From a virus, in IMG/VR virus record IMGVR_UViG_3300029309_000005, positions 1 through 64,000 of that record: a stretch of DNA of 64,000 nt. One strand, given 5' to 3'. The position numbers and the translations under genes were made by a program. The notes beneath the pieces were generated by a model. The model made no database searches and was not told the origin of the DNA. It was given only the letters and a program-made list of their open reading frames with translations. Shown here one piece after another: positions 22,755 through 54,120 of this stretch (position 1 is the first letter of the stretch; the number at the start of each line of letters is the position of its first letter).

Positions 22755-22868
22755 TTTTTTTTGTGTAGTTTCAAAACTGGCTTAAAATAATGCCACATAG
22801 CCAAAAAGTGGCCTAATTTTTTTTTTCGATGGAATGGCTTTATTTCAGATAGCCACCTGCACATTAAT

Positions 22869-23438
22869 ATGGCATCGACATTTAACTCCGCTTGGAGTGT
22901 GATTAAGATGCCAGCCAAAGGATGGGAATGCCCTGAATGTAAGATGCCAATGATGGTCGAGGACACCAAAGGAAATCATCTTACTTGTATGAATTGTGGT
23001 GCAGTTGCTTTACAGCCTATTCGCAGAAGGAGAACAAGAGGAACGGGTGAAGCCTATGCTAGAACAAACCAAGCGTATGATGATTACAAACAATCCCAAC
23101 TTGACAATCGACCTAATGAGATAAAAGCATTAGAAGATGTGGGTGTAAATGTAGTCGATAAGCCAAAGAGATTGACTGAATATAATCCCGAACACATGTT
23201 TAATCCACTAGCAATGGCACTAAACGAGTTAGGTTTTGAATCGGTTCAAGAATTACTGCAAGAGTATGTAAAGTTGAAAGCCGTAACTAAAAACCAAGAT
23301 TTGCGAGATTTAGGACTATCTGACGAAGCAGATGAACTCGATCAGCAATGGATAGAATATATTTCAAACGCACATAATCAATTTGGTAGCCCATTTATGT
23401 CAGCAAAACGGGGGAGGCGATGGGATGACCCTGTTTGA
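22869..23438 (+). CDS. leader-tagged Zn-ribbon protein
   Basis: MASTFNSAWSVIK|MP; CPEC...LTCMNCG (TFIIB-like ribbon spacing). TTTATTT box ~30 nt upstream. Confidence 0.65.
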   Translation: MASTFNSAWSVIKMPAKGWECPECKMPMMVEDTKGNHLTCMNCGAVALQPIRRRRTRGTGEAYARTNQAYDDYKQSQLDNRPNEIKALEDVGVNVVDKPKRLTEYNPEHMFNPLAMALNELGFESVQELLQEYVKLKAVTKNQDLRDLGLSDEADELDQQWIEYISNAHNQFGSPFMSAKRGRRWDDPV

Positions 23439-24189
23439 TATTGCCTGGGCTTTGCTCAAAGAAGAAGGACAACGCAGGGATGTAAAGCCCCACGCATTAT
23501 CAGGACTTGCTGATCGTAAAACTATGTCTTTTGGAGAGGGTATTGATGATGCTAGGGCATTTTATCAACTACCATTAAGCACAATTACGAGTTACGGGAG
23601 TGACGCTAAACAAAGAATAGGGCCGAACCCTTCTAAACCCAATAATGAAAACGACTGGCAACAGGTCGGCCATATTCCTTTTATTGAGGGTTATGAGGCT
23701 GAAGGATATGGTGCTTATGAATCTGAAAGTAATGCTTTGAAAGACCTAATGAATGCTGCTGTGCCGCCCTCATTTGCTCAAGATGGTTTCTATCATCCTT
23801 ACTTACACGCTTTGGATTATGACACAAACGAATGGGTTACTCATTTAGGCGAAGATGCACCGCCCACTGGCGATTATGAGCGAATCTTCAGAGCAAAGGT
23901 AATTCAAGATGGTGGGCCACTTAGCCCTCATAATCCCATTTATCCAGATTGGGTTTGGACTAAAATTGAGAGAGAGCAAGATGAGGATGGCAAACATCAT
24001 TTGACATTATACACCGCAAAATACCCTTACAGTTTAGATGAATTATATGAAAATTTACGAGAAAACCCTGAACCTTACTTTGAGTCCGGTGCGATACAAG
24101 TTGATGACAACATACAAACAGGAGAGCCAATGAGTATCGCTTGGCAGTTGTTGAAGATGCGTATTCCTAATTTGCCAGAGGGGATTTAG
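23425..24189 (+). CDS. leader-tagged hypothetical protein with second leader copy near C-terminus
   Basis: Start corrected to ATG 23425 after GGAGG: MTLFDIAWALLK|; C-terminal TGEPMSIAWQLLK|MRIPNLPEGI. Confidence 0.65.
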   Translation: MTLFDIAWALLKEEGQRRDVKPHALSGLADRKTMSFGEGIDDARAFYQLPLSTITSYGSDAKQRIGPNPSKPNNENDWQQVGHIPFIEGYEAEGYGAYESESNALKDLMNAAVPPSFAQDGFYHPYLHALDYDTNEWVTHLGEDAPPTGDYERIFRAKVIQDGGPLSPHNPIYPDWVWTKIEREQDEDGKHHLTLYTAKYPYSLDELYENLRENPEPYFESGAIQVDDNIQTGEPMSIAWQLLKMRIPNLPEGI

Positions 24190-24381
24190 ATGATGTATCT
24201 TTGCCCAATGTGTCAATCCACTGAATTTGATACTGACACTATCATTATGCAAGGTAAGTGGAGTCGTCTAATCAATTACTCGAATAAGAAATATGATGCT
24301 GTTAGTTGTAAAAATTGTGGCTATACCATGCTTTTCAAACAGGATGCTAAGTTCAGCATAATGGAGGCGTTGATAGGATGA
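24190..24381 (+). CDS. small Zn-ribbon nucleic-acid-binding protein (DUF2082-like)
   Basis: CPMCQSTEFDTDTI...SRLINYSNKKYDAVSCKNCGYTMLF; no leader. Confidence 0.7.
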   Translation: MMYLCPMCQSTEFDTDTIIMQGKWSRLINYSNKKYDAVSCKNCGYTMLFKQDAKFSIMEALIG

Positions 24382-24806
24382 CAGCCTTCGACACCGCTTG
24401 GGGCTTGCTCAAAATGCCGTTTTTTGAAGATTTACCTCAAGTAACACAAGACGACATTACATACCTTATGCTGGAACGCAACCCACACATAGACGAACAA
24501 TACAAAAGGATTCACCCAAATTACCTCAAAAGGGATATGTTCGGAATGTTTTTGCCCGAAATCGAGCAGATGGAGATAAGTCGCTTGACGAATCAAAGAC
24601 CTGTTGAAAACACAAATGCAAAAACCATTGAACGCTACATCGAAATGCTCAATCAAGGAAGCCCTTCACCTCCGATCATTGTTTCGGGAAATCAATTTGT
24701 TGATGGAGGACACCGTTTGCATTCTCATAAACAGGTTGGATTGAAGAAGATACCAGCCATAAACATTGGAGATTTGTTGGAAAAACCATTGGGGGTTGCT
24801 GAATGA
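24378..24806 (+). CDS. leader-tagged ParB/Sulfiredoxin-like protein
   Basis: MTAFDTAWGLLK|MP; PPIIV...FVDGGHRL...GLKKIPA. Confidence 0.75.
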   Translation: MTAFDTAWGLLKMPFFEDLPQVTQDDITYLMLERNPHIDEQYKRIHPNYLKRDMFGMFLPEIEQMEISRLTNQRPVENTNAKTIERYIEMLNQGSPSPPIIVSGNQFVDGGHRLHSHKQVGLKKIPAINIGDLLEKPLGVAE

Positions 24807-25255
24807 CCGCCTTCGACACCGCTTGGGATTTGATGAAAGCCCCTTTTCATGGAACTACAACTGGCGTTCTTAAAAAAATAAGAAAACGAGGACTTCAACC
24901 AAAAAGGCCAGACGCTTTCACCAGCCCGTCTGTGTTTTTTTCACAAAGCCCTGAACAGGCGATAGCATTTGCCAATATCCGTTCCGACTTGACGAGAGGT
25001 AAGTATGGTGGCGATCCCGTTCTCCTTCATTTTCCTCTTTCAGCCGTTAAGAATCCGAATCAAGGTCTATTCCGACCAACACCCGAAGATGGAGATAATC
25101 AATGGACTAAACACCCCATTCCTGCAAGTGCAATAACAGAATACTACGGGCCGCCAAAACCCAAAGACAAAGAAAAATGGGATGAATGGCAAGACGCTAT
25201 CAATTCATGGAAAAAAGAAATGATGGAACGGTATGAACAGGGGGAGTTTGATTGA
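24803..25255 (+). CDS. leader-tagged ADP-ribosyltransferase-like (Tpt1/KptA-type HGT) protein
   Basis: MTAFDTAWDLMK|APFHGTT...IRKRGLQP...VFFSQSPEQAIAFA...PVLLHF...IPASAI. Confidence 0.7.
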   Translation: MTAFDTAWDLMKAPFHGTTTGVLKKIRKRGLQPKRPDAFTSPSVFFSQSPEQAIAFANIRSDLTRGKYGGDPVLLHFPLSAVKNPNQGLFRPTPEDGDNQWTKHPIPASAITEYYGPPKPKDKEKWDEWQDAINSWKKEMMERYEQGEFD

Positions 25256-25518
25256 CTGTCTTTGACATCGCTTGGGATTTAATGAAATCTATACCTATGG
25301 ATATTATGAATGACCCTTTGGTGTATGTTGCCCCCGATAACAGCCACCGTTTCGTTAGACAAGACCGTGATTTTCGTTCTTGGTTGTATGAAAATGGCTA
25401 TCCAGCCGATGATGATTTCCTTCAATTAGATTTCATGCAACAGATACAAGTTTTGTTTCATTACAGGGTTCAGCAAGGTGCTTCAAAGGAACAGTCGTTT
25501 ATGGAGGACAATGTATGA
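25252..25518 (+). CDS. leader-tagged hypothetical protein
   Basis: TTG start; MTVFDIAWDLMK|S. Confidence 0.65.
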   Translation: MTVFDIAWDLMKSIPMDIMNDPLVYVAPDNSHRFVRQDRDFRSWLYENGYPADDDFLQLDFMQQIQVLFHYRVQQGASKEQSFMEDNV

Positions 25519-26144
25519 CCGCCTTCGATCAGGCTTGGGGCTTGCTCAAAGCACCTTATCACGGAACTACGTCAGATCGTGTTGAAAGCATAATGCGTGA
25601 GGGATTGAAGCCGAGCGATTGGAAGTCAGGGAATCGTTTTGTTGGTGGCAAGGGTCAATATGAAGAAGGAAAGCCTGTGGTTTTTGCTACATCGTTTCCA
25701 AAATTGGCGTTGAAATATGCAAAGATGGGGGCAAATAGAGCCTCAAGGCGGAGGGCGCAAGATGAAGGCAGAATTACAGGGAACTGGACTACCGCAACAT
25801 CGGACAAAACCTTTGACTCAAAATCGGGTCGCCCTGTGATTATTGAGATTGATCCGTCTTTTCCGCTTAGGCACAACAAAGAATGGAATGCCTACAAATC
25901 AAATGTCGTCATTCCGCCTCAATTTTTGCGACTTGCTTTTGAAAGCGAGATAGCCCCAACTGAACCAATCACTTATGGTCGCATGGAGGCTATCGTTGAT
26001 GGAGAATATGAGCGCATGGATCCTCAACTGCCAAGAAGTGAAGTTAAACGAAGGTTGGCCTCATACGATGACGATCCAGATGAAACGGGATATTCGCCAG
26101 AATTGAGTCTTGAAGAAATTGAAAGGCGGGTGATGCGTGAATGA
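25515..26144 (+). CDS. leader-tagged ADP-ribosyltransferase-like (Tpt1/KptA-type HGT) protein
   Basis: MTAFDQAWGLLK|APYHGTT...SIMREGLKP...VFATSFPKLALKYA...PVIIEID...IPPQFL. Confidence 0.72.
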   Translation: MTAFDQAWGLLKAPYHGTTSDRVESIMREGLKPSDWKSGNRFVGGKGQYEEGKPVVFATSFPKLALKYAKMGANRASRRRAQDEGRITGNWTTATSDKTFDSKSGRPVIIEIDPSFPLRHNKEWNAYKSNVVIPPQFLRLAFESEIAPTEPITYGRMEAIVDGEYERMDPQLPRSEVKRRLASYDDDPDETGYSPELSLEEIERRVMRE

Positions 26145-26479
26145 CCGCCTTCGACACCGCTTGGTCTTTGTTGAAAGAAGGCTTGCCGTATTACGGGAAT
26201 TGTGTTAATGGTTTTGACGATGTGGAAGTTTTGCATTATATCATTGATAATTCAATTGAAACAACCTATGATGATTTAGCAAACAATGTATCGGCAAGTG
26301 ATTTAGCCGCATTAGAACAGGGGTTGGGATATGGCGAACATTTGCATATTGCAGACGATTATGCGGCTTCCTTTCATAAATTACCTTCTTTACCCCTCTT
26401 TTACATAGACCAAAGCGGGATTGAAAGGGTGTTTGCTGAACCAAGCACAATTGAACGGATAGAGAGGTTGGTTGAATGA
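26141..26479 (+). CDS. leader-tagged hypothetical acidic protein
   Basis: MTAFDTAWSLLK|E. Confidence 0.68.
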   Translation: MTAFDTAWSLLKEGLPYYGNCVNGFDDVEVLHYIIDNSIETTYDDLANNVSASDLAALEQGLGYGEHLHIADDYAASFHKLPSLPLFYIDQSGIERVFAEPSTIERIERLVE

Positions 26480-26895
26480 ACGCCTTCGACATCGCTTGGG
26501 CTATTGTAAAAATGCAAACAGGCCATAGACGCTTTTTTTCAAAAAAGGAGATTCAAGAAATTGCCGAGATGAACAGGCATTTGGCTTTGATGATTGATGA
26601 TGGTTCACTTGACCCAGATCCAAGCGTGAATTATCCCTCTCAATGCAGGGAGTGTTTTAGTGAAATCAATAACATTGTTGAGGGTATTCCAAATCATTGT
26701 AGTCGTTGTATTCATCCCTTTGTGGATAAGCGAATAAATGATGCGATGGGAATAGCAGGTCTATTTGGAGATGGTAAGCCATTTGATTTACAAGACGCAT
26801 TGCGGCAAGACAAAAATGAAATCAATCCTTTTGATGGTTCGGCAAGTGAAGTTGATTTTAGAATGTATGAAGATAGGATGCGTGGTTTAGAATGA
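26476..26895 (+). CDS. leader-tagged CxxC protein
   Basis: MNAFDIAWAIVK|M; CREC...CSRC. Confidence 0.68.
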   Translation: MNAFDIAWAIVKMQTGHRRFFSKKEIQEIAEMNRHLALMIDDGSLDPDPSVNYPSQCRECFSEINNIVEGIPNHCSRCIHPFVDKRINDAMGIAGLFGDGKPFDLQDALRQDKNEINPFDGSASEVDFRMYEDRMRGLE

Positions 26896-27626
26896 CCGCC
26901 TTCGACACCGCTTGGCAATTGATGAAAGCACCCATTGATGTTTATTCGGATCGTGGCCGAATAAGGGAGATTACTGATGATGAGATGTTGTATAGCGGTG
27001 GGGATTTTAGAGATGACCCACGCTATTATTCAAATGACCTTGATGTTGCTTTGCATTATGCTTTGTATGGTTCAGCCATTCCCTACGCTGATTTTAGAGG
27101 GCGAAGAAATACAGAAGGAAAATCCTCTCCACCAATGCGAAGAACAATACCGAGCATCAGAATCATTGACCCAAGCGATTTTGAAGAATACGAATACGCA
27201 ATGCAAGAAGATCCATATAGCCCTGGTATTGGTGTTATGGATGATGAGAATATGGGTGAACGTTTGTCGCATGATCGAGTTATTGAATTGCTTCAAGAAT
27301 ACATTGATGAAAGACGATATGAGGGGGTTATGGGCGGAACAACAGGCGAATTATTCACCCCTGAACAAAGAGGGCAACACGCAAAAGACGCTCTTAATCG
27401 TTTGAGGGCTTACAGGGATAATGAATCACTTGAGAGGTTTAACCCCAAACCACCAACCTATGAGATGGATGCCGATGTGTTTAGAACTGCCGAATACGAT
27501 GATTTCATGGAGGCACTTTCTTATGACGATAGCATGGTTGAAATGCTTGGCGAATGGGAGGATTTAGAGGATTGGCAACGAAAAGCAGCCAAAGAAGCGG
27601 GATATTCGGAGGATGATTGGATATGA
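26892..27626 (+). CDS. leader-tagged protein, possibly a divergent ART fold
   Basis: MTAFDTAWQLMK|AP; LYSGG...YYSNDLDVALHYA resembles ART strands 1-2 with the His replaced. Confidence 0.6.
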   Translation: MTAFDTAWQLMKAPIDVYSDRGRIREITDDEMLYSGGDFRDDPRYYSNDLDVALHYALYGSAIPYADFRGRRNTEGKSSPPMRRTIPSIRIIDPSDFEEYEYAMQEDPYSPGIGVMDDENMGERLSHDRVIELLQEYIDERRYEGVMGGTTGELFTPEQRGQHAKDALNRLRAYRDNESLERFNPKPPTYEMDADVFRTAEYDDFMEALSYDDSMVEMLGEWEDLEDWQRKAAKEAGYSEDDWI

Positions 27627-28369
27627 CCGCCTTCGACACCGCTTGGAATCTTGTCAAAGAATATACTCCAAATTGGAGAGATGTTGCTAGTAATTTGCCA
27701 GAACTTTCTATGAGTGAGCGTCAAAAGTTGTTAAGCGAGGATTCTATAATGGATGATATGATGGGGCAAGGTGGCTCATTAAGCACCTTTATTCATCCAA
27801 GTGATAGAAGATTTGTTGTTAAATTACCCCACATGCAACACTCTAAAGACAATTTAGCAAGCAGGTTTGGTGATTATGATGGAGATGGTTACTACATGAC
27901 TGAATTGTTAGAAAGTCTTGGTTTCCCCGTAGTATCTGAATTTAATGTAGATGATGAGTATATTATTCAGCCAATTCTCGAAACTCATGCTTATGGTGGG
28001 TTTGGTGAACTAGGGCGGCCAACTTTAGGAATTGCAGATATTCCAATGAATCATATATTTGGCGATAGAGTAAGTGCTAATTGGGGTCGTGATCAGACAG
28101 GGAATTGGCGTTTGTTTGATACTGATATGGGTATGCCTCCACCGTATGATTGGTGGCCTTCTTCATCAGCGAATCCAGGTCAAGCCTATCAAGAAAATCT
28201 TGACAAGTTCAACATTCAATTGCCAGCCTCTAGTGTTCTCGATATTTTGGATGAAATACCAAACGACATGGATGGTTTGAGGGCTGTAATGGAATCCATT
28301 GAACCATATTCGGACAATCCGCAATATGTAACGGTTGATAAAAAACCTGTGTGGAGAACAGGGTATTGA
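27623..28369 (+). CDS. leader-tagged protein-kinase-like (HipA/PI3K-type) protein
   Basis: Start at ATG 27623: MTAFDTAWNLVK|E; MGQGG (Gly loop), FVVKLP, GDRVSANWG (DRxxxN), RLFDTD. Confidence 0.6.
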   Translation: MTAFDTAWNLVKEYTPNWRDVASNLPELSMSERQKLLSEDSIMDDMMGQGGSLSTFIHPSDRRFVVKLPHMQHSKDNLASRFGDYDGDGYYMTELLESLGFPVVSEFNVDDEYIIQPILETHAYGGFGELGRPTLGIADIPMNHIFGDRVSANWGRDQTGNWRLFDTDMGMPPPYDWWPSSSANPGQAYQENLDKFNIQLPASSVLDILDEIPNDMDGLRAVMESIEPYSDNPQYVTVDKKPVWRTGY

Positions 28370-30233: not shown

Positions 30234-31520
30234 ATGACTGAGGATATTGTTACAAATCTAATAAAGACCCTTGAAATAAGGGATGACTTTAGCATTCAGA
30301 AGATGCCGCATCCCTCTGCTGGAAAGTTCGGAAGAAGGAGGGCTTTACCTACTGCATTTAGGCTTCAAGGTGTAAAAAATAATCCAATGTATTCAAACAT
30401 CATGGCTGCTTTAAGAGATACCCTTGGAGATCGTGAAATGATTGAGACATTTGGGGGGGGTGGAGGTTTGTCATTAGGATTTAAGCCGTCAAGAGCCATC
30501 ATCAATGACATAAATCCAGATATTGGCAATTTAATGCGTAGAATCATCCGTGAACCGTTTCAAATAAATCCTAGTGATTACAATGTTGCAGAAGGGGAAT
30601 CAATTATAATGCCACATCCTACTTTGGGGGATATTGATATTGGAACAATGACTCCTGAATTGATGAGTCAATTTGGTGAAGGAAAAGAAGCATTTGTGCC
30701 AGCACATTATTACAATCTCCGTAATCAATATAACGCACTTAGAGAAAAAGCCGCAAATCAAACTGCAACACAGGAAGATTATGATAGAATGGCCGAATTA
30801 TTTTACATGTTACAACTGACTGGATTCAATAGTTTAGTTCGTTATGGTCGAACTAAGGAATTACCATCACTTGAAAACCCTTATTCAACACCTCCAGGGC
30901 TTTCACGTGACAAAAAATATTTGCCAGAAAACCCACAGATGGCAGGGGCATTTTTCGATAGATTGATGGAGGCAGGGCTTTATAATCCTGAAAAGAACAG
31001 ATACAAAGGCCGAATACAACCTGGTGGCAATACTTTCAGACCTACACCCATTAGAGGCGGTATAGGGCCGCATGATTTTTCGCCTTGGCATGAGGCAATG
31101 AAAGATTGGGATTGGAGAACAGGTGACGCATTCCAATTTTATGACGACATCAAAGACCAAATGAAAGCCGATAAAAACCTCATTACTTTCGATCCGCCCT
31201 ACTTTGGAGAAGAAGGCGCACACGGATTCTTTAACGAGCAAGAGCAAGATAAATTGCTTCAACAAATTATTGACGCAAAGGAACGTGGTGTGCCAACAGT
31301 TGTTTTTAATTCAATGAGTCCTTCAATTGTAAATCCGTTACGAGATGCAGGTTTTGACATTCGTGAATTAAATCGTCAAGATATGTCAGGTTCAAAGGCT
31401 TCAACAAGAGGAACAGTCGGTGAACTTATGGCTATGGCAAATGTTCCTCAAGATTCTTTTAATGAAGCATTAAGACGAATGCAGCAAGGTAATAATAGAA
31501 ATCAACAAAGGCTGTTCTAA
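30234..31520 (+). CDS. Dam/D12-class N6-adenine DNA methyltransferase
   Basis: IETFGGGGG, IINDINPD, GFNSLVRY, FDPPYF, SGSKASTRGTVGELM. Confidence 0.88.
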   Translation: MTEDIVTNLIKTLEIRDDFSIQKMPHPSAGKFGRRRALPTAFRLQGVKNNPMYSNIMAALRDTLGDREMIETFGGGGGLSLGFKPSRAIINDINPDIGNLMRRIIREPFQINPSDYNVAEGESIIMPHPTLGDIDIGTMTPELMSQFGEGKEAFVPAHYYNLRNQYNALREKAANQTATQEDYDRMAELFYMLQLTGFNSLVRYGRTKELPSLENPYSTPPGLSRDKKYLPENPQMAGAFFDRLMEAGLYNPEKNRYKGRIQPGGNTFRPTPIRGGIGPHDFSPWHEAMKDWDWRTGDAFQFYDDIKDQMKADKNLITFDPPYFGEEGAHGFFNEQEQDKLLQQIIDAKERGVPTVVFNSMSPSIVNPLRDAGFDIRELNRQDMSGSKASTRGTVGELMAMANVPQDSFNEALRRMQQGNNRNQQRLF

Positions 31521-32029
31521 GGCACAGGTTGTTGCATACTAGGATGAGTCATTGGTGAATGTGATATGCTACCTGCACCGGATGAACCTTGACACTGGCG
31601 TAAATCTGCAATTACCTTATTCACAAAATATTCAAACGGTATATCCATCGAATACTGTAAAGATTGAGCATATTGTTGAATCCATTGTATATCTGTGCTG
31701 AAAACTCTATCGTATGAAGTTAGATTGTGCTGATATGTTTGTGCGCCTTGCCAGTTTGCTTCTTCATTTAGTGCTTGCTCTGCACTACCAAAAATGCCAG
31801 ACCATGATTGTTGATTGTTGTTTATGTTATTGTAAGCGTATATTGGATTGCCTAAATGACAGAGCAAACCAATTGCTGCGTCTTGACAAAAGTTTGGAGA
31901 TTTGCCATCATTTTCTGCATATCTTGTAGTCCATGAGGAAATGCTCTGTGGATCATGTGCCATCCCAGTTAGTGCGATGTTATATGAACGGAGGGTATGA
32001 ACTGCTTCAATTAAGTTAGGTTGGCTCAT
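31517..32029 (-). CDS. hypothetical protein, lone antisense-oriented gene
   Basis: 170 aa ORF convergent with the MTase; no competing long plus-strand ORF. Confidence 0.55.
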   Translation of the reverse strand: MSQPNLIEAVHTLRSYNIALTGMAHDPQSISSWTTRYAENDGKSPNFCQDAAIGLLCHLGNPIYAYNNINNNQQSWSGIFGSAEQALNEEANWQGAQTYQHNLTSYDRVFSTDIQWIQQYAQSLQYSMDIPFEYFVNKVIADLRQCQGSSGAGSISHSPMTHPSMQQPVP

Positions 32030-32110
32030 AATAAAGCCACCTTACCTCTTGTATTTGATGTTGTTTATACTGTCATAGTTCATATACTTGTTATACATGG
32101 GAGGTGCTAG

Positions 32111-32257
32111 ATGGGCAAACACGTTTCTGTTGTAATGAAAGATAGTCTATTTGCTAAAATGGAGAATGAAAGAGGGCGTGAGTCTAAATCTTCATTTGTA
32201 AATCATGCACTTGCATTTTACTTCAAAAACAAAGACAAGGTGAACACTGATGAATAA
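32111..32257 (+). CDS. ribbon-helix-helix (CopG-like) protein
   Basis: Not in track: MGKHVSVVMKDSLFAKMENERGRESKSSFVNHALAFYF..., with GGAGGTG upstream. Confidence 0.7.
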   Translation: MGKHVSVVMKDSLFAKMENERGRESKSSFVNHALAFYFKNKDKVNTDE

Positions 32258-32687
32258 ACCTGATGAAAAGGAAAGAGGCTTTTATCCTCCCCCTTATATG
32301 GCCGAAGATACAAATAGAATAGACATAAATCTCATAGCAATGTTGCTATGGCAAGCACTTTTGACTGGTATTTCAGTTGCAGTATCTCATATGGGATGGT
32401 ATCTGCCTAACGCTGGTGCTGGAGAAATGGGATTACAATATGGTTTGATTGCATTTGGCTTCCTTTGCACTTCAATGGTGTTGTTTCATGTGGGTGGCAT
32501 TCGTGATTCTTTGGCTATGCGAGCAGAATTCTCTAGGGAAAATCAAATTGATAAATGGTATAGGCAGCAACAAAGATTACAACAGCGAAGGGCAACAAAA
32601 GAGCAGTATTGGCGAAATAACGGCCAGCAAAACCCTTATGGGAAACAACAGTTCGGTTTGCCTAATGATAGCAAAGATGAAGATTGA
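32250..32687 (+). CDS. 2-TM membrane protein with Gln-rich tail
   Basis: Two hydrophobic segments (LIAMLLWQALLTGISVAVS; LIAFGFLCTSMVLFHV). Confidence 0.65.
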   Translation: MNKPDEKERGFYPPPYMAEDTNRIDINLIAMLLWQALLTGISVAVSHMGWYLPNAGAGEMGLQYGLIAFGFLCTSMVLFHVGGIRDSLAMRAEFSRENQIDKWYRQQQRLQQRRATKEQYWRNNGQQNPYGKQQFGLPNDSKDED

Positions 32688-32708
32688 TTTCACTTTGGGG
32701 TGAACTAG

Positions 32709-32933
32709 ATGTGGCCGTTCTCAACTGCACAAGAGCGACAAACGGAAGCAATGTCGCAAATATTAGCAGAAAACGCATATGAAAGAAAAATGGAGAGGGT
32801 TGCTGGATGGGTAAGAACAATTACTGCACTAATTGGAGGAATCGCTTTGACATTTGGAATTTTATTTGGACTAGAAATCTTAGGAATATCACCTTCAGAT
32901 GTATGGACTTTTATAACAAGCATAGGAAACTGA
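32709..32933 (+). CDS. small membrane protein
   Basis: TITALIGGIALTFGILFGLEILGI TM segment. Confidence 0.65.
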   Translation: MWPFSTAQERQTEAMSQILAENAYERKMERVAGWVRTITALIGGIALTFGILFGLEILGISPSDVWTFITSIGN

Positions 32934-32946
32934 AGGGGGTAACTCT

Positions 32947-33678
32947 TTGTCTGCCTTGATTGCAGGGCATATGCTAATGGCATCAGCGTCTGCACTTTAC
33001 TCACTTTACAGAATATTACGGCCTTTTCGAGTAGGCATTTATGGCCCATCAATGGTTGGTAAAACAACTTTAGATCAGTATCTCACTGTGCCAGGAGATA
33101 TTGATCCTATACCTTTTCATTTGAGAACTGCACATCCTAAAAGTAAAACAGCAACTGGTTATAAAAATCCCTCTGAAACCAGAAAACAGGTTCGTTTAGT
33201 CAAGGTCAAAAAGCCAATTACTACAACAGATATTGCAGGAGATGTGATGTTTCGTAATCTTTGGATAGATGATATGTTTGGTAGAAATGTTGAATTGGTA
33301 ATGTTCATGGTTGATCATAGGGCAATGACATCACGACAGTTTGCTATGGATGCTTCTGCTAGTTTGTCATATTTGGTTGATAACATAGTAAAAAAAGACA
33401 TCAGCAAAAAAATCTCCAGAAAGGCAAAGAAAAATTCTAAAAAATATGTTCCACGCTTATTTTGTTTGATGATAAATAAAATGGATATATGGTGGGATGA
33501 ACGTGCTGAAGCGTTGTGGTCTTTAGGTTTGCAGAAAGAGCATCCTATCGTTGCACCATTTAGAGATTCGTTAAAACGGTTGAGAAAAGCAGGTATTCGT
33601 GCAGAAGTAATGGCAATGTCATCTCAACATGGAATTAATGTTGAAAAGAGTTTAATTGCATTATTGGATTCTTTGTAG
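32947..33678 (+). CDS. small Ras/Arf-like GTPase
   Basis: G1 GPSMVGKTT, G3 DIAG, G4 NKMD, G5-like MSSQHGINV; hydrophobic N-terminal helix. Confidence 0.8.
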   Translation: MSALIAGHMLMASASALYSLYRILRPFRVGIYGPSMVGKTTLDQYLTVPGDIDPIPFHLRTAHPKSKTATGYKNPSETRKQVRLVKVKKPITTTDIAGDVMFRNLWIDDMFGRNVELVMFMVDHRAMTSRQFAMDASASLSYLVDNIVKKDISKKISRKAKKNSKKYVPRLFCLMINKMDIWWDERAEALWSLGLQKEHPIVAPFRDSLKRLRKAGIRAEVMAMSSQHGINVEKSLIALLDSL

Positions 33679-33703
33679 GATAACGCTTATGGGGGTGTTA
33701 GGC

Positions 33704-34675
33704 ATGGCAGGGTTAATGGCGTGGAATCCCCAAGTTCTAAATCCGATGTCATATTTGCCATATCAAAGAGGTCTAAAATTACAAGGACTTGATGATGAGC
33801 AATTAAAGTTGGTATCACAGCAAACTGGCATTTCATATGAGTTATTGAAATCTCAACAACGTGCGGAGATGGCAAGTGCTGGTTCAACTGGAGATATAGG
33901 TGAAGAACAACTTATGCCTACTGTTGAAATACAGTTGAAATCTAATCCTAAAAATCCTAAGAAGGCTAGAAAGCAAAATATCAAGATGCTGAGAAAGGCT
34001 TTGAGGCCACCAAATTATAATTTAGGATTTTTCAAAATATACCGCTACAATGCAGCGCATGAATGTGCTTGCTGCGGAGTCGATATTCGCAGATTTTTAG
34101 AGGGCGATAACGCTTATGCACATATTGTTGACGAAAGCACCGGACTTTCCTTAGCAGATATTTATTGGTTCGATGAAGAAACTGGAAACGCTAGAAAGCC
34201 ATTGGCAAGGACTCATGGCGATCACGGTGATGAAATGAACAGTTCTCTATGTCCTGCACATCTTCACATTTATCATACTCTAAAATCTTTAATTCAAGAG
34301 CATGAAATGGCAGAAGAAGGATTTAGTCGCATTGCTTCAAAAGGAACTAAATTTACCAAAATACCTGGAATGAGTGCTTTGATGAAAGGTAACTCTCCTA
34401 AAAATAGAAGCACAGCAGAATCATTGTTAAAGTATGAGCCATTTTTTGCTATGGTTCACAAAGATGCACAACATAGCAAAGGTGTTCAATTAACACAATT
34501 GCCAAATCCTGTAACTGGAGTAGTAGATATTGTGCAAGTCACTTTTGATTTGAGAGCATTACAAGCAGAATCACAAATGGCACAAAGAAATGCTATGGCA
34601 AACGGCATTTCTATGCAAACTGCTATGAACGCACAGGCTTTGCCACAACAAGAGGCTACAATTCAACAACAGTAG
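33704..34675 (+). CDS. hypothetical protein with CxCC...CxxH Zn motif
   Basis: Start set to ATG 33704; CACCG...LCPAH. Confidence 0.65.
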   Translation: MAGLMAWNPQVLNPMSYLPYQRGLKLQGLDDEQLKLVSQQTGISYELLKSQQRAEMASAGSTGDIGEEQLMPTVEIQLKSNPKNPKKARKQNIKMLRKALRPPNYNLGFFKIYRYNAAHECACCGVDIRRFLEGDNAYAHIVDESTGLSLADIYWFDEETGNARKPLARTHGDHGDEMNSSLCPAHLHIYHTLKSLIQEHEMAEEGFSRIASKGTKFTKIPGMSALMKGNSPKNRSTAESLLKYEPFFAMVHKDAQHSKGVQLTQLPNPVTGVVDIVQVTFDLRALQAESQMAQRNAMANGISMQTAMNAQALPQQEATIQQQ

Positions 34676-34683
34676 GTGATAAT

Positions 34684-35289
34684 ATGGGCTGGTTTAGCAA
34701 AAATGACAATACAAGCACACAATTTGGCTCTCCAACGCAAAATCTGAGTCAAACAAACGGAATGAGCATGGATAATGGCATTTTGGGTATGCAAGCAGCC
34801 CAAAACCCAATGATGCAACAAATGGCAAACGATCCAATTACTGCTACTGCCCGTTTGCTTGAATTAAATGACCCAGTTGCTCAATTTATTGTTTCACAAA
34901 ATATAGGTTTGCTTATGGATTTGGTTGGAGAGGTAGTTCGATTATCTATCAAAGAATTCTTTACCAGTATCACCTTTACACAAGCGGAAGATGGTAAAAT
35001 TACACTTGACCAATCATCATTACCAGCGTCAATAAATACACTGTCTCCTGAAAATCTAGGTTTGACAATGACAAAACTACAATCTTCTGCACAACAAACT
35101 CTTGCTAACAATGCAAACCAAAGGCAGATGTTTTTACAAGCACATAATATGGGGATGTCAATGAATCCTCAAACGCAACCAGGGTTCTTTGGTGCGTTGC
35201 TAGGTAATGTGCTTGGAAATCAAGTCCAGCAACAGGGCGGCTTTGGTCAAACTGCTGCAAAAGTAGGAATGGGGGCTGCGGTCTTATGA
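34684..35289 (+). CDS. Gln/Met-rich hypothetical protein
   Basis: 201 aa; N-terminal MGWF; amphipathic C-terminus. Confidence 0.65.
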   Translation: MGWFSKNDNTSTQFGSPTQNLSQTNGMSMDNGILGMQAAQNPMMQQMANDPITATARLLELNDPVAQFIVSQNIGLLMDLVGEVVRLSIKEFFTSITFTQAEDGKITLDQSSLPASINTLSPENLGLTMTKLQSSAQQTLANNANQRQMFLQAHNMGMSMNPQTQPGFFGALLGNVLGNQVQQQGGFGQTAAKVGMGAAVL

Positions 35290-35531
35290 ATGCCAGAGAT
35301 AAACAACCAGAGCAAGCAAATATCTACAATGCCACAGGCATGATTATGAGTCCAAACAAAATGTTAGTTGAAAGTGCTACAATGATTTTTATTATTTCAT
35401 TTATGCTTGCCATGTTTGTTATGCTTGTTTGGAGAGGTTCTTCACTTTCATCAACACAAGTTCTGATGGGTGCTTTTGGATTAATTTTTACCTTTGGGAT
35501 AGCAGTTAGACAATTTGCCTCTTTTCGGTAG
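35286..35531 (+). CDS. 2-TM small membrane protein
   Basis: Two hydrophobic helices. Confidence 0.65.
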   Translation: MNARDKQPEQANIYNATGMIMSPNKMLVESATMIFIISFMLAMFVMLVWRGSSLSSTQVLMGAFGLIFTFGIAVRQFASFR

Positions 35532-35542
35532 CCTCATCGGGA

Positions 35543-35770
35543 ATGAGGCGGTTTAATCCTCTACCGTATAGTCCTTTGCTGACTAAATTTGATCAAGACG
35601 GTGATGGTGATTTTGATTTTGATGATATTAAGATAATATTAGGCAAAAAGAAAGAGCAAAAAGAAACTTGTATTGCGATTACAAAATCTGGTAAAAGGTG
35701 TAAGCGGCAAGGTAATTTAGATGAAAATAACTTGTGTTATACCCATAGAAACTATGACAAAGCCAATTAA
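35543..35770 (+). CDS. small protein with EF-hand-like loop and CCCH motif
   Basis: DQDGDGDFDFDD; CIAITKSGKRCKR...LCYTH. Confidence 0.55.
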   Translation: MRRFNPLPYSPLLTKFDQDGDGDFDFDDIKIILGKKKEQKETCIAITKSGKRCKRQGNLDENNLCYTHRNYDKAN

Positions 35771-35792: not shown

Positions 35793-36500
35793 ATGGCTGG
35801 TCGGCAGACACGCAAAAACTGTCCGTTTTGCCAGCACCCTGAAAGAGATTTACTCGAACAAAAAATCCTAGAAGGTTCATTAGATGTTCAAGACTGTGAT
35901 AGGCAACATCAATGGGCTGAAGGAACAACTCACAGACACATGCGGAGGCATTCTGGAGAATATTACAATAACAGTAATTCTTCATGCCCTATATGCACAG
36001 ATCCAAATCGTGCAGATATTGAAGCAGCCATTTTAGAAGGTAGAGCAGGTATAGATGATTTCGCTGTTGAGTTAGGTATTGCTAGTAGCACAGTGTCAAA
36101 TCACATGGAAAAACATACAAAACCAATCATTCAACAACATGTAGATATTCAAGCCTTACCTAATGCTATGAAAACAGTTCATGAGTCGTTAAGTCGTGTT
36201 GAAACTAATATGAACCGTTTAGATAAATTATTAGGGAGAGTTCTCGATCATGTTGAAAATCAATTTGATGATGAACAAGAGGTTGTTGAAATGCGTGATG
36301 TTGAAACTGCATTGAAGGTTCATCGTGAAGTTCGAGATACTTTAGTTGAGTTAGCAAAATGGATGGAGAAGGCAGAAACCATTGAAGATAAACAATCGGT
36401 TTCTATTCTAAACGTATTACAACAATTTTATTCTGAAAAATCACCCCAAGAATGGGCTGAATTAAAAAAGCGTCTTGTTGCATCGGGGGTGATGAGTTGA
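35793..36500 (+). CDS. putative terminase small subunit / Zn-HTH DNA-binding protein
   Basis: Tandem CxxC..P.R..iE..ILEG...HM..H repeats followed by coiled coils; upstream of TerL. Confidence 0.5.
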   Translation: MAGRQTRKNCPFCQHPERDLLEQKILEGSLDVQDCDRQHQWAEGTTHRHMRRHSGEYYNNSNSSCPICTDPNRADIEAAILEGRAGIDDFAVELGIASSTVSNHMEKHTKPIIQQHVDIQALPNAMKTVHESLSRVETNMNRLDKLLGRVLDHVENQFDDEQEVVEMRDVETALKVHREVRDTLVELAKWMEKAETIEDKQSVSILNVLQQFYSEKSPQEWAELKKRLVASGVMS

Positions 36501-36937
36501 GAACAGTTCATCAGTTGATGCTCAAAGATTTGCCTACTCATCATAGTATTTTATCTAATAACAAAGCAAAAGATTTGTGGAGTATAGATGATTTGTTAGC
36601 ATACACTAATTCTGTTGATGTAGTTGTAAAGCGTTGGGCTGAAGCGGTTGAAGAACATTTAGAATATCCCGAAAGCATAGTTGCAGACATACTAGGTTCG
36701 CTAATAGTTACAAGACTTTTGATTAGTGATTTGAAGATATTAAAACATAAACCAAATGCTGAGTGTATATCTTTGTTAGATGGCACACAGATAATTACTG
36801 ACTTAAAACAAAAAATGTTGCCAATGTCAAAATCTTATGCACGTGTTCCTTCGTTAGCACAATGGTATATGACTTTAGCAAGTGAAATTGATACAGCGTA
36901 TCGCTCAATTCGTAGGAGGTTAAAAGATGGTAGTTAG
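36497..36937 (+). CDS. hypothetical protein
   Basis: 146 aa, overlaps neighbours. Confidence 0.6.
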   Translation: MRTVHQLMLKDLPTHHSILSNNKAKDLWSIDDLLAYTNSVDVVVKRWAEAVEEHLEYPESIVADILGSLIVTRLLISDLKILKHKPNAECISLLDGTQIITDLKQKMLPMSKSYARVPSLAQWYMTLASEIDTAYRSIRRRLKDGS

Positions 36938-38477
36938 CAATCCTAGAGAACCCCTTATTTGGACTCCACGAACTCAAGAAATGATGGGAGGTTTCAATCC
37001 ACGTGAAGTTTTAGACCATGACATTAACCCTAATGAGGATAGTGATGGTCTTTCACATCATGGTCGTGAAACTCCAGAGGATGGTCGTAGTCGTGATCAA
37101 GCAGACCCTAAAAAGCGAAGGGAGAGAGCGTTAAGTGAATTGGCTGCAAAAATACCTCACGTTAGTATCAAACCACAGAAGATTGATGATGTATTAGGAA
37201 GATCACCACAGTTTGAACAGGAACAGACTATGCTTGAAGCAGGTATTGGACTTGATTTGAACAGAAATGGAATTGGTTTATCGAATGGAATGAATGCTGG
37301 TTCTGTTAGAACAGAGGGGCCGAATGTCAGATACGGTATGAGTAATACTCTAGTTCCAGCGATGTTAGGTAAAGCAGAAGAAGGAGGCTCGCCTGAACTT
37401 CCTACATGTAAAAACTGTGGTTATAAAATGGGAATCGCTAGATATGCAAGAGGAAAGGAATTATGCGTTGTGTGCGATCCAGAAATTCAAGACAAAGTTG
37501 AGGCAAAGGTTAGGAGAAATTTAGTTCCTAAACCTGTGCGTGAAATAGATTTTAACCCCGACCCAAATGAGCAATACGACCCAAGGTTTGGTGACACATC
37601 TAAATATCCAGAATTTACTGCAAGTGAGGACTCATTTACTTACGCTTGGGATAGCGTTCTAAAAGCAAAAAGGCGTTACAAAGGTCGTAGGATGTATGAT
37701 GAGGAAGAATCCGATGAGGATGAGCGTAAATCAAAGGCCAAACGAAAGAGGTCAAAAAGACGCAAAGGTAAGACTCAGAAGAAGGGCGCACGTGGGGGTC
37801 GTCAAATAAAGTCAGCATCTAAAAGGAGGGCGAGTAGTGTTGCTTTAGATGTTGATCGTGGTTCAAAAAGACAAGCATTCCACCCTAATATCCATAGTGA
37901 AGCAGTTAGAAGAATAGGGTCTGGTCGAAATGAAGCGATACCTTTGCGGTTACGTGACCCCGTTGCATGGGAACGCAAAAAAGCAAATGAGAGAATGAGA
38001 AGGCAAGTTGGTTCAGTTCCGAGGGCTTTAAGATTATCACATCACGCAGACACTAGAGGCATGGGAACAAAAGGCCGTTCAATACTTGGAGGCACTATTG
38101 GAACCGGCACTAGAATGCCCTCAGTGAGTAGAATGGGAACATCAACATCTAAATTTTCAAGAGGTGCAGTTGGTGATCCTTTAGGCATTAACGACCCGTT
38201 AGTTGCTAAAATGAATCTCCTTTCCAAATCAAAACCTAACATTTCAAGGTCTGAGTTTATGGCTATGAAGCGTAAGATTGAGAAATTACTTCAACGGCTT
38301 AACAAATTGACAAAGGCTACCCCTGAATTAGATAATGCAGGAAAAGTAGGTGCGGTTGTTAGCGGTCATGAATCGTCTGCACCAACTGGTGCAACAAAAA
38401 CAAATGAGGAAGAAAAAGCATTCCGTTTTGTTGATATGGCTTTAGCACAGGAGATGGGTCTTATAGGCAAGAAGTGA
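36927..38477 (+). CDS. putative internal virion protein with internal leader motif and very basic segment
   Basis: ASEDSFTYAWDSVLK|AKRRYKGRR...KRKRSKRRKGK; Zn ribbon CKNC...CVVC. Confidence 0.6.
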   Translation: MVVSNPREPLIWTPRTQEMMGGFNPREVLDHDINPNEDSDGLSHHGRETPEDGRSRDQADPKKRRERALSELAAKIPHVSIKPQKIDDVLGRSPQFEQEQTMLEAGIGLDLNRNGIGLSNGMNAGSVRTEGPNVRYGMSNTLVPAMLGKAEEGGSPELPTCKNCGYKMGIARYARGKELCVVCDPEIQDKVEAKVRRNLVPKPVREIDFNPDPNEQYDPRFGDTSKYPEFTASEDSFTYAWDSVLKAKRRYKGRRMYDEEESDEDERKSKAKRKRSKRRKGKTQKKGARGGRQIKSASKRRASSVALDVDRGSKRQAFHPNIHSEAVRRIGSGRNEAIPLRLRDPVAWERKKANERMRRQVGSVPRALRLSHHADTRGMGTKGRSILGGTIGTGTRMPSVSRMGTSTSKFSRGAVGDPLGINDPLVAKMNLLSKSKPNISRSEFMAMKRKIEKLLQRLNKLTKATPELDNAGKVGAVVSGHESSAPTGATKTNEEEKAFRFVDMALAQEMGLIGKK

Positions 38478-42588: not shown

Positions 42589-44025
42589 ATGTCAGACGCT
42601 TTACAAAAATTGGCAGCCAATGTTGATTTTGAAATGGGGCGTAGAGATTTCAAATACTTTTTTGAAGAAATATGTGGCAAATTCGATGAAAAGAATCCTT
42701 GGATTTTGACAAAATTTCATCAAGAATGGTTTGATTTATCTGAAAACAACAACAAGACTTGTATCGTAGCCAGTCGTGATCACGGCAAATCTGTATTCTA
42801 TCGTGTGTATCTACTATGGAAAATGGCATATAATCCTGGCACAGAAGTCTTATTTTTCTCTCATAGTCAGCACCAGTCAATTGAACACATGGCTAAGATG
42901 AATGAATTGATTGAATCAATACCTGCATTGCAGCATCTTAAACCAAAAAGAGGTTGGGCAAAGCAGAAGTTCAAGTTCACAAATAAGTCATCAATATCTG
43001 CTATGTCTGTTGGTAAAGCGGTTCGTGGCGCACACCCTCAAATTGTAGTGCTTGACGATATTCTATCTAGCGAAGCGCAAACACAGTTAAAGCATATTTC
43101 ATCTTGGTTCTATACTGCATTATTGCCAGTTCTTCACCATACAGCACAATTATGTATTGTTGGAACACCATTTTCATATACTGATTTGTATTCAGAATTA
43201 AAAAAACTAAAATCGTATGCTGTTAGAGAATACCCTGCAATTAATGAGCAAACAGGAGAACCATTATTCCCTGAACGCTGGTCTTTGGATGCACTGAATA
43301 ATAGAAGAAATGATATGACATCCATAGCATTTACTAGGGAATATTTGTGTAAGCCGATTGCTAGTGAAGCAAGTTTGTTTCCAGAAGAAGTTCTTGAAAA
43401 AGTTAAAGATGAACACTTGTCATTATCTTATTATCCTCATGACGGTGAATCATACAATTACTACATAGGATGGGATCCTGCAATTTCAGCAGACCGGAGA
43501 GCAGATTATACCTGTATGATGGTGATTGCAGTTGATGAAAATAAAAACAAACATGTTATTCATACACATCATGAAAAAGGAATGGACTTTTCATCACAAA
43601 TAGATAAAATCATAGAATTGAATGCTAGATTTAATCCAGTAATTATTGAATTAGAGACAAATAACTTTGCTGTGGCATTCAATCAAGTTCTAAATGAGAT
43701 TAGCGATCTTCCAATAAAACCATTCAATATGAGCCGAATGAAGAAAGAGGCTTTAATTCATACCCTCCAACTGCAATTTGAACAGGGCAAACTAACTTTA
43801 CCTTACAAAGATGAAGGAGGCACAAGAAGATTGATGAATACTCTATTAACCGAACTCTCTACGTTCACTATGCTGGATAACGGTAGAATGGAGAGTCTAG
43901 GCGGTCACGATGACATGGTTATGGCTCTTGCTCTAAGTGTTCAAGCAACAAAGGAGTATCGTGATAACATCGTTATACTAGATGCTGACATATGGCAGAA
44001 TAGACTAGGGTGGGCAAATGTCTGA
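42589..44025 (+). CDS. terL: terminase large subunit
   Basis: Walker A ASRDHGKS, RGAHP..VVLDD (Walker B), VGTP, FTREY, GWDPA, ELETNNF, HDDMVMALAL. Confidence 0.93.
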   Translation: MSDALQKLAANVDFEMGRRDFKYFFEEICGKFDEKNPWILTKFHQEWFDLSENNNKTCIVASRDHGKSVFYRVYLLWKMAYNPGTEVLFFSHSQHQSIEHMAKMNELIESIPALQHLKPKRGWAKQKFKFTNKSSISAMSVGKAVRGAHPQIVVLDDILSSEAQTQLKHISSWFYTALLPVLHHTAQLCIVGTPFSYTDLYSELKKLKSYAVREYPAINEQTGEPLFPERWSLDALNNRRNDMTSIAFTREYLCKPIASEASLFPEEVLEKVKDEHLSLSYYPHDGESYNYYIGWDPAISADRRADYTCMMVIAVDENKNKHVIHTHHEKGMDFSSQIDKIIELNARFNPVIIELETNNFAVAFNQVLNEISDLPIKPFNMSRMKKEALIHTLQLQFEQGKLTLPYKDEGGTRRLMNTLLTELSTFTMLDNGRMESLGGHDDMVMALALSVQATKEYRDNIVILDADIWQNRLGWANV

Positions 44026-45253
44026 AAGAATAGAGGGAGTTTTAGGTGTTGAGTCGCCCACTGATGTTATACTCAAAATTTTGGATGAACAACTCATTGA
44101 TGCGGAATTGAAAAACAATGCTCAAGAAAGAAAACTTCTCGAAACTCAGAAAAAAGTTGCTGCAAAAAAAGGCAAATCGACAGGCGAATCACGTGAAGGT
44201 GCTAGTATAGATGGATTAGATGCAGACAATCGAGGTGGAGGTGATGTTCAACCAGGAACTGCCGTTCAAACTCAAACATCCCCCATTCCAGTTACAAAGA
44301 CATGGTTTGTTGATAATTTTGGGATGCAAGGATCTGAAATGGTTGATTTATTTATGAAATCTGACAAAAGTGAAATTGTTTCAATTATAGAACCGTTGAT
44401 TATTCAAGAAAGAATTGCTTTATTGAAATCATTTCCTTCAGTTTCTCCCGATCTTGTTACTAAAATCCCATTTACTGATTTTGATTGGCAGATGTTACAA
44501 AAAAATGTATCATCATTGGAAATACCATTTAGAAGATTTGTGAAAAGTTGGAGTGATGGAAATGATTCTGCGTATGATGTTTGGCACAATCGCATTACAA
44601 AGGAACAAAGATTAAGTTTGCCAGAAAGAAAAATATTACAAAAAGCACATGATGTTTTAGAATCTCATGGTAGCATGAATACTCAATCGTTACAGTCGCA
44701 TGGCGTTAATGGTAGCACTACTAAAATTGCCATGTTAATAAAATCACATGGATTTTTGTATGATATTAAGCCACAGGGTAGCGGCTCAAAAAATACAGAC
44801 AAAGGTTTGTTTTATGGGTTACAAAAGATGGATGTTTTCATAAAAGATGCTGGTGCTTTGATTGGCGGGTTATATGAGATGGGAGGGGAAATTGAAATCA
44901 GTTCACGTGGCATTCCAAGATTGGTTCTACCTTTTAGTTCTAACATTCGCAAAGAATATGCCAATGCACTGAATAATGAATTGGGTGTGCGAGGAATTAT
45001 AGCCGAAGGCAGGGGGCTAGTGATTGAAGGGGAGATTTCAGTCGCTAAATCAATTGAGTCTGCTTTACCATTTTTGCATGATAAGAAAGGAGAGATTGTT
45101 ATACTAAAGAAGTCACTAAAAGATGATACTGATGCTTTGCGGTGTTTAACATACTCACAATCTAAGCCTCAGAAACAAGTGTCTTTACTGAAAATGTGGA
45201 ACATGTCATTAGAATCATTTGAAACTATGAAACGAGGTGTGATTGATGGCTGA
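44018..45253 (+). CDS. protein with wHTH-like region and degenerate LAGLIDADG-like C-terminal domain
   Basis: ALIGGLYEMGGEIEIS...PRLVL...LNNELG...LVIEG...ALPFLHDKK resembles the LAGLIDADG fold without the catalytic acid. Confidence 0.45.
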   Translation: MSERIEGVLGVESPTDVILKILDEQLIDAELKNNAQERKLLETQKKVAAKKGKSTGESREGASIDGLDADNRGGGDVQPGTAVQTQTSPIPVTKTWFVDNFGMQGSEMVDLFMKSDKSEIVSIIEPLIIQERIALLKSFPSVSPDLVTKIPFTDFDWQMLQKNVSSLEIPFRRFVKSWSDGNDSAYDVWHNRITKEQRLSLPERKILQKAHDVLESHGSMNTQSLQSHGVNGSTTKIAMLIKSHGFLYDIKPQGSGSKNTDKGLFYGLQKMDVFIKDAGALIGGLYEMGGEIEISSRGIPRLVLPFSSNIRKEYANALNNELGVRGIIAEGRGLVIEGEISVAKSIESALPFLHDKKGEIVILKKSLKDDTDALRCLTYSQSKPQKQVSLLKMWNMSLESFETMKRGVIDG

Positions 45254-54119: not shown

Positions 54120-54120
54120 A

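Follow-up and report, generated by a model that had tools for sequence, protein, structure and literature searches.

Positions 32111-35770 of a 64,000-nucleotide stretch of virus DNA (the window), the first 64 kb of the IMG/VR record IMGVR_UViG_3300029309_000005, hold eight + strand open reading frames (ORFs) in which a gene for a small Arf-like GTPase stands among genes for membrane proteins. The record is a linear virus genome of 96,627 bp, rated 91% complete, and the virus is a magrovirus, one of the tailed viruses of Marine Group II (Poseidoniales) archaea, abundant in the ocean. Group A magroviruses possess a thermosome gene, a genome of ~100 kb and halovirus-like structural genes (PMC5434244), and in the present genome a thermosome-type chaperonin and a UvrD-like helicase are encoded on the opposite strand, as is the replication block. 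We are highly confident that the eight ORFs open the long + strand morphogenetic block of this 96.6-kb genome and represent a virus-specific cassette with a five-gene core that is inherited as a block, consisting of a protein with two transmembrane (TM) segments, a protein with one TM segment, a very divergent Arf-like GTPase, an orphan with a zinc-type site and a Gln/Gly/Met-rich orphan starting M-G-(W/L)-F. Relatives of the GTPase are encoded on 289 IMG/VR contigs, and gene order was read in 79 fetched loci, to which the counts out of 79 below refer. The data sets listed as containing the stretch are all DNA metagenomes, with none of RNA among them.

32030..32110 (81 nt), no strand: divergent, conserved intergenic region; a TTTATA box lies at 32064, TT(N)ATAC-like direct repeats occur three times, and a strong GGGAGGTG ribosome-binding site precedes the first gene
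32111..32257, + strand: ribbon-helix-helix (RHH)-like protein of 48 residues, a possible regulator, with a beta strand (HVSVV), a helix, a G-R-E-S turn and a helix; found in 50/79 loci
32250..32687, + strand: 2-TM protein of 145 residues with a conserved juxtamembrane R-D-S-L-A-M-R-A-E-F and a basic, Gln/Arg-rich cytoplasmic tail; holin-like size and layout
32709..32933, + strand: single-pass membrane protein of 74 residues with a charged N-terminal half, beginning M-W-P-F-S; 52/79 loci (tblastn)
32947..33678, + strand: divergent Arf-like small GTPase of 243 residues whose N-terminal helix (residues 2-24) is a hydrophobic anchor; switch I is followed by a long insert modelled with low confidence, switch II reads D-I-A-G-D...F-R-N-L-W, the polybasic insert lies at ~148-170 and G4 is N-K-M-D
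33689..34675, + strand: zinc-site orphan of 328 residues with a conserved Cys/His zinc-type site, always next after the GTPase
34684..35289, + strand: Gln/Gly/Met-rich orphan of 201 residues with an M-G-W-F-S start, a low-complexity stretch, a conserved core of ~100 residues and a glycine-rich P-G-F-F-G...G tail
35286..35531, + strand: two-TM hairpin protein of 81 residues, from the TM scan; 51/79 loci, with an equivalent in a distant clade
35543..35770, + strand: EF-hand/Cys protein of 75 residues; a single EF-hand-like loop, D-x-D-x-D-G, and a Cys/His motif at the C-terminus; 17/79 loci, accessory and poorly conserved
35793..36500, + strand: Zn-ribbon/helix-turn-helix (HTH) protein of 235 residues, just outside the cassette, with two C-x-x-C pairs, an HTH-like segment and weak HTH matches

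All eight ORFs that a preliminary description of the window had listed at 32111-35770 are present and under purifying selection, with dN/dS of 0.03-0.19 in all nine genes compared with close relatives and the GTPase the most constrained (0.03). The ORFs are tightly packed, with gaps of <=22 nt and overlaps of 4-8 nt at 32250 and 35286, and every intergenic gap from 32111 through the terminase and portal genes is <=22 nt; because of this continuity with the terminase and portal genes, a late timing is proposed for the cassette. The preliminary description had placed the cassette just upstream of the packaging genes; the large terminase lies 6.8 kb further downstream. The structural and packaging landmarks of the genome are:

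42589-44025: large terminase
45243-47054: portal
52722-54119: head protease
54112-55269: major capsid protein
63140-64564: tape measure

The anchored Arf-like GTPase

The preliminary reading of a virus-encoded Arf-like small GTPase within a membrane-protein operon is borne out by invariant G1-G4 motifs and switch I Thr, by a Ras-superfamily fold and by neighbours with TM segments. Across an alignment of 32 relatives with identity down to 40%, the invariant residues comprise G38, K39 and T41 of the P-loop, R60 and T61 of switch I, D95..G98, W106 and N177-K178-x-D180, and the binding of GTP is predicted from such motifs. The AlphaFold (AF2) model of the protein (pLDDT 76) has a Ras-superfamily fold, and Foldseek matched it to Rab, Arf and Rap chains (E ~1e-8, probability 1.00). 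When the family profile was compared with solved structures, Asgard ArfR (8OUN/8OUM) ranked first (E 7e-6), followed by Arl8 and Arl10; 8OUN and 8OUM come from the preprint 'Arf family GTPases are present in Asgard archaea' (bioRxiv 10.1101/2024.02.28.582541).

The switch II consensus of the viral family, D-I-G-G-Q-x-Q-F-R-N-L-W, is the Arf-type signature D-x-G-G-Q-x3-R-x-L-W, and its Trp stands 11 residues past the Asp of D-x-x-G. The same D-to-W spacing is seen in Arf1. The window GTPase reads D-I-A-G-D...F-R-N-L-W in this segment, without the second Gly and without the catalytic Gln. Family-wide, the catalytic position is occupied by Gln in most clades, by Asp in the window's clade and by Glu in a distant clade, and several clades have Ala in place of the second Gly of the G-G pair; because the catalytic position varies, hydrolysis may be unusual or slow. 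Against the Pfam Arf family (PF00025; gathering cut-off, 22.3 bits) the window GTPase has no match at E <= 1, matches in 16 of the 32 relatives are weak (best E 2e-4), and more distant intermediates pass the cut-off. Since the window protein lacks a Pfam Arf match, we call the GTPase Arf-like and not a member of the Arf family.

A word-based search recovered 125 relatives of ~240 residues, many on contigs of 95-116 kb, and an exhaustive search with the family profile through 1.84 billion representative proteins returned only 99 matches, mostly from the same family or fragments thereof. The weak tail of the profile search is made up of proteins scoring above the Pfam Arf cut-off, many of them with a hydrophobic segment at the N-terminus, and hhalign aligned the viral family with these intermediates at 99.9% over 188 columns, with an E-value that is inflated because the intermediates were picked from the viral profile's own matches. 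Neither fusions nor longer versions of the GTPase turned up, a negative of little weight, and tblastn against the public phage-record collection gave no match. A few database entries bear the automatic name 'GTPase SAR1 family protein'. Separately, a predicted protein of 2180 residues from the exhaustive search (P0140) has 21 matches to the P-loop-to-switch-I segment of the viral profile, possibly as an assembly artefact or a tandem-repeat oddity.

The membrane attachment of the GTPase appears to differ from that suggested in the preliminary description, which had drawn an analogy with Arf/Sar1 through an N-terminal amphipathic helix. Such a helix is a defining feature of the Arf family (10.1101/2024.02.28.582541). 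In 27 viral relatives, residues 2-24 combine an Eisenberg mean hydrophobicity of 0.42-0.76 with a low moment (0.02-0.23), keep an A-G-H motif and are followed by basic residues, so that, judged on composition, the helix looks like a hydrophobic membrane anchor of the kind found in SR-beta, and the amphipathic analogy was set aside. Among solved structures, the Arf proteins (eukaryotic Arf/Arl8/Sar1 and Asgard ArfR) nonetheless remain the best relatives, sharing the switch II signature, N-K-x-D and an N-terminal helix ahead of the G domain. Beyond the anchor, the Asp of the window protein and its lack of a Pfam match, the viral GTPase differs from Arf proteins in an insert of ~30 residues past switch I (modelled at pLDDT <50), in a conserved polybasic insert ahead of beta-5, and in being encoded by a prokaryotic virus together with a fixed set of orphan partners.

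SR-beta, a eukaryotic protein, has the architecture of the viral GTPase: a membrane anchor at the N-terminus precedes a G domain of Arf-like type. Weak matches to the SRPRB Pfam family (PF09439) occur in 4/32 family members (best E 0.021) and in profile-search intermediates, one of which is named SR-beta by JGI. However, no match reaches the SRPRB cut-off, an SR-alpha-like partner is lacking and the gene lies in a viral late operon.

A relationship to ArvA, the small GTPase of an archaeal vesiculation system, was ruled out. The ArvA genes compared were taken from loci adjoining Pfam OapB in genomes of the same phylum; the BLASTP match spans 44 residues at 41% identity, from the P-loop to switch I only, and the hhalign match covers 43 columns at 94% probability, while ArvA has a D-T-P-G switch II and is of the MMR_HSR1 type (7e-14). 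The stretch in common, R-[IV]-G-I-Y-G-P-x-x-x-G-K-T-T-L ... I-P-x-E-x-R (ArvA at L093 822-1460; window 33028-33141), could be due to chance, convergence or an old chimera.

Conservation of the cassette and its partner genes

Gene order across the 79 loci runs RHH-like, 2-TM, 1-TM, GTPase, zinc-site, Gln/Gly/Met-rich, 2-TM and Zn-ribbon/HTH, then terminase, and is held by sequence to ~45% GTPase identity and, at 40%, by sequence plus position and topology. When loci were anchored on the terminase instead, the Zn-ribbon/HTH gene was present in 22/22 with a full upstream flank and the GTPase in 9/9 whose flank reaches far enough. In a third, deeper clade, which encodes a GTPase of 223 residues on 140 contigs, 57-66 of 67 loci retain the five-gene core, here with capsid-side genes on one side, tail genes on the other and the tape measure ~7 kb downstream (L176-L255, e.g., L183 9222-12123); no terminase or Zn-ribbon/HTH gene occurs within 10 kb in these loci. 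That the core has relocated as a block with its internal order kept is the strongest evidence that the five genes work together, and because the third-clade core lies away from the terminase, a link to the packaging genes is not essential. Conservation of the cluster, on which the preliminary description had made its reading depend, thus extends over 289 + 140 viral contigs and three deep clades.

A relative with 54% identity to the GTPase (locus L084, 3422-4144) lies on a 106,262-bp contig of the single-cell genome 'uncultured Candidatus Poseidoniales archaeon AG-422-I20', which supports a Poseidoniales host; AG-422-I20 is likely an infected cell and, as such, a direct virus-host link. The profile of the viral GTPase matched 1/201 genomes of the host order, namely this single-cell genome, and since the sole match is the genome holding the viral contig, the GTPase is considered virus-specific. 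A six-frame search with Pfam Arf was unspecific, matching 13/14 control genomes. The viral GTPase also occurs on short contigs (8-16 kb) binned in metagenome-assembled genomes of Parvibaculum and Maricaulis (L083, L085, L087) and of Promethearchaeati (Asgard; L086); these are probably mis-binned viral contigs and would mislead host or taxon assignment.

The membrane proteins have the TM counts given in the preliminary description, with a Kyte-Doolittle scan placing two segments in 32250-32687, one in 32709-32933 and two in 35286-35531. The sole convincing small membrane proteins of the genome lie in the cassette, the other multi-segment protein being the tape measure. The 145-residue protein aligns across two deep clades, has a positional equivalent with >=2 TM segments in 66/67 third-clade loci and has no PDB profile match below E 0.08. 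The 74-residue protein has positional equivalents of 60-100 residues in the other clades. In four third-clade loci inspected, no equivalent of the 81-residue hairpin was seen directly after the Gln/Gly/Met-rich-like gene.

The alignments also upheld the zinc motif and the Gln/Met-rich composition that the preliminary description had assigned to the two soluble orphans. The zinc-site protein, whose longest ORF runs from TTG 33656 and which probably starts at ATG 33689, has an invariant Cys and a C-P-x-H-L-H-x-x-H motif. It is present in 79/79 loci and adjoins the GTPase in 66/67 third-clade loci, where it is shorter with the pattern C-x2-C ... C-x2-H. No Pfam, NCBIfam or PHROGs family, PDB profile or Atlas entry matched this protein, and the fold search gave no Foldseek match at E <= 1e-3 and a best VIA Z of 4.4, within noise; it is a candidate regulator or effector of the GTPase. 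For the Gln/Gly/Met-rich protein there was no Pfam match and no PDB profile match below E 0.08, and its M-G-(L/W)-F-(G/S) start recurs in the equivalent gene of 59/67 third-clade loci; a resemblance of an M-G-L-F-G start to PspA/ESCRT-III was considered but not retained.

The genes at either end of the cassette are less firmly characterized. The first had been described as an RHH regulator, and the product of 32111..32257, with 11 invariant alignment columns and a dN/dS of 0.11, does conserve the strand/helix/turn/helix pattern but has no Pfam, NCBIfam or PDB profile match. The last, described as an EF-hand/CCCH protein, retains the EF-hand-like loop and has weak Pfam and NCBIfam matches but was detected in only the 17 of 79 loci given above; its Cys/His motif (window 35666-35761) matches the N-terminal domain of NCBIfam halophile-type GvpO (E 1.4e-6, below cut-off) and Pfam DUF5763. 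The adjoining 235-residue Zn-ribbon/HTH gene is tied to the packaging genes and not to the cassette core, occurring in 22/22 terminase-anchored loci and 0/67 third-clade cassette loci.

Upstream, the intergenic region 32030..32110 has a mean column identity of 84% across six related loci, compared to saturated synonymous sites in genes, and a 24-mer from it occurs once in the window. On these grounds it is a candidate promoter and operator of the cassette, with both roles assigned from sequence. A gene for 170 residues on the - strand (window 31517-32029) diverges from this region, is kept in 27/79 loci and has no Pfam or PADLOC family. The PADLOC defence-system models had no match in the cassette.

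Virion release and other possible roles

We tentatively favour a late membrane event, most likely virion release, as the function of the cassette. In such a scheme, the hydrophobic N-terminal helix, aided by the polybasic insert, would tether the GTPase to the cytoplasmic side of the host membrane, where the GTPase would act as a nucleotide-dependent switch. The two soluble orphans would set or sense the state of this switch, with the zinc-site protein directly downstream as the first candidate for a regulator similar to a GTPase-activating protein (GAP) or for an effector. The switch might determine when or where the small membrane proteins act on the host membrane during late infection, and the likeliest event would be a membrane breach for virion release, making the cassette a GTPase-gated, holin-like egress device for a host without a murein wall.

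Several lines of evidence lead to this preference. Every other essential late function can be assigned to recognisable genes, with egress the one exception; since there is no murein wall around the host, breaching the membrane may suffice; the 145-residue 2-TM protein has a holin-like layout; and the two positions of the cassette, before the terminase and between head and tail genes, are those at which lambda-like and P2-like phages keep their lysis cassettes. As in phage lysis cassettes (holin/antiholin/endolysin/spanin), small proteins with one to two TM segments, one of them with a charged cytoplasmic tail, are compactly arranged inside a late operon. The product of 32250-32687 has the holin feature (1-3 TM segments and a charged cytoplasmic C-terminal tail), which is generic and no proof of function. 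The absence of holin- and endolysin-like genes from the window, noted in the preliminary description, extends to the rest of the genome, where Pfam and PHROGs scans detected no known gene of this kind (no match in the cassette or in ~40 larger ORFs scanned) and no separate lysis system was found. The egress machinery of archaeal tailed viruses has been called 'completely uncharacterized' (review PMC10791045), and the small GTPase ArvA drives membrane vesiculation in other Euryarchaeota (PMC10927574), which we count in favour of egress.

Other observations weigh against a role in release. The membrane proteins of the cassette match no known holin family and have no sequence relation to one, no envelope- or wall-degrading enzyme was found, and the GTPase and the two large soluble orphans are without counterpart in phage lysis cassettes; the positional analogy with these is weak evidence. 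As the partners have no recognisable fold, a GAP or effector role for them is a guess, and the position of the catalytic Gln is variable (Gln, Asp, Glu). A core gene set in the morphogenetic block fits a role in assembly equally well, and with many genes unannotated an unrecognised egress system elsewhere in the genome is possible. It is doubtful that the cassette supplies the egress machine still missing for an entire order of archaeal tailed viruses, with a zinc-partner-controlled, anchored Arf-like GTPase as the clock or trigger by which holin-like proteins breach the membrane. Were this true, it would constitute GTP-gated lysis without a bacteriophage counterpart, and viruses would have put Arf-type switching to use independently, beyond eukaryotes and Asgard archaea.

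Whatever its function, the cassette demonstrates that prokaryotic viruses have, among their core genes, anchored Arf-like GTPases with partners of their own, which is relevant to the origin and spread of small-GTPase membrane switches. In the papers searched, membrane-anchored Arf-like switches with partners are described for cells only, the magrovirus papers make no mention of a GTPase, lysis or membrane proteins, and no paper combining virus-encoded, Arf-like and archaea was found. For the question of how archaeal tailed viruses are released, the cassette offers a concrete, conserved and compact gene set for which heterologous expression is possible, though the host is uncultured.

Two alternatives place the cassette at the membrane for purposes other than release. 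An assembly platform, in which the GTPase, anchored beside its membrane partners, would define the place on the host membrane where proheads, packaging or head-tail joining are nucleated, is comparable in idea to the membrane-initiated prohead assembly of phage T4 and would account for a core gene set, as assembly factors are, that is always inside the morphogenetic block (before the Zn-ribbon/HTH, terminase and portal genes in two clades and between head and tail genes in the third). We consider it unlikely, given that the cassette is tied to no single structural gene, having moved relative to them, that tailed-virus assembly generally needs no membrane, and that the leader F-x-x-A-W-x-L-L-K, found on 18 other proteins of the genome, was found on none of the cassette proteins. 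The pairing of membrane-located proteins with a switch protein would also suit a take-over or exclusion function, in which the host membrane is remodelled or re-programmed for a block of superinfection, a change in transport or energy, or a replication compartment, and the regulator-like first gene and conserved upstream region suggest separate control. Such genes are, however, usually variable and accessory, whereas the cassette is universal, strongly constrained and packed with the late structural genes and not with the opposite-strand replication block, which makes this function rather improbable.

The remaining alternatives, both of which we regard as very unlikely, concern the GTPase itself. 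In Haloferax, ArvA, ArvB and the Zn-ribbon protein ArvC (a small GTPase and two partners) drive vesicle formation (PMC10927574), and the viral cassette could provide an ArvA-like function, perhaps to make decoy vesicles, to supply membrane or to release virions without lysis. The host order is one where ArvABC was not found: Pfam OapB (ArvB) is present in 0/201 host-order genomes vs 123/301 sampled from the phylum. Both systems pair a small GTPase bearing an N-terminal membrane-binding helix with small partners that include a zinc-binding protein, in a similar layout of GTPase then Zn protein, and the membrane target, proposed in the case of the virus, is archaeal; the local identity to ArvA also fits. 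Set against vesiculation are the lack of ArvA homology beyond that segment, the different GTPase subfamily, the three integral membrane proteins added in the viral cassette and the absence of OapB and OapC from it. OapB was absent from a six-frame search of the whole viral genome in which the Haloferax and Methanosarcina controls were positive, and no cassette protein had a Pfam match to OapB (PF09846) or OapC (PF09845) at E <= 1; further, budding is not known to be needed by tailed virions that lack an envelope. The GTPase could instead be a pseudo-switch, nucleotide-locked and with no functioning GTP/GDP cycle, that serves mainly as a scaffold for the membrane proteins, as might be read from the Asp and Glu at the catalytic position and the Ala for the second Gly. 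But the nucleotide-binding motifs, including the switch I Thr and N-K-x-D, are invariant down to 40% identity, and GTPases such as Rap function without the catalytic Gln.

Other repeated or mobile elements of the genome

The leader that sets apart 18 proteins of the genome conforms to the motif F-x-x-[AST]-W-x-x-[LIVM]-K, and the genes concerned fall at 20570-28369 and 36927-38477 of the window and at 80658-86900 of the genome. The motif lies mostly at residues 4-6 and is internal in two large proteins. The leader also begins small genes that are insertions in related loci (L041 14786-15210 and L046 13490-13921, for example). An HMGL-like (pyruvate carboxyltransferase-type) gene at window 21202-22071 is a mobile auxiliary metabolic gene, with N-terminally similar genes elsewhere in related loci (L041 13941-14789; L046 7729-8553).

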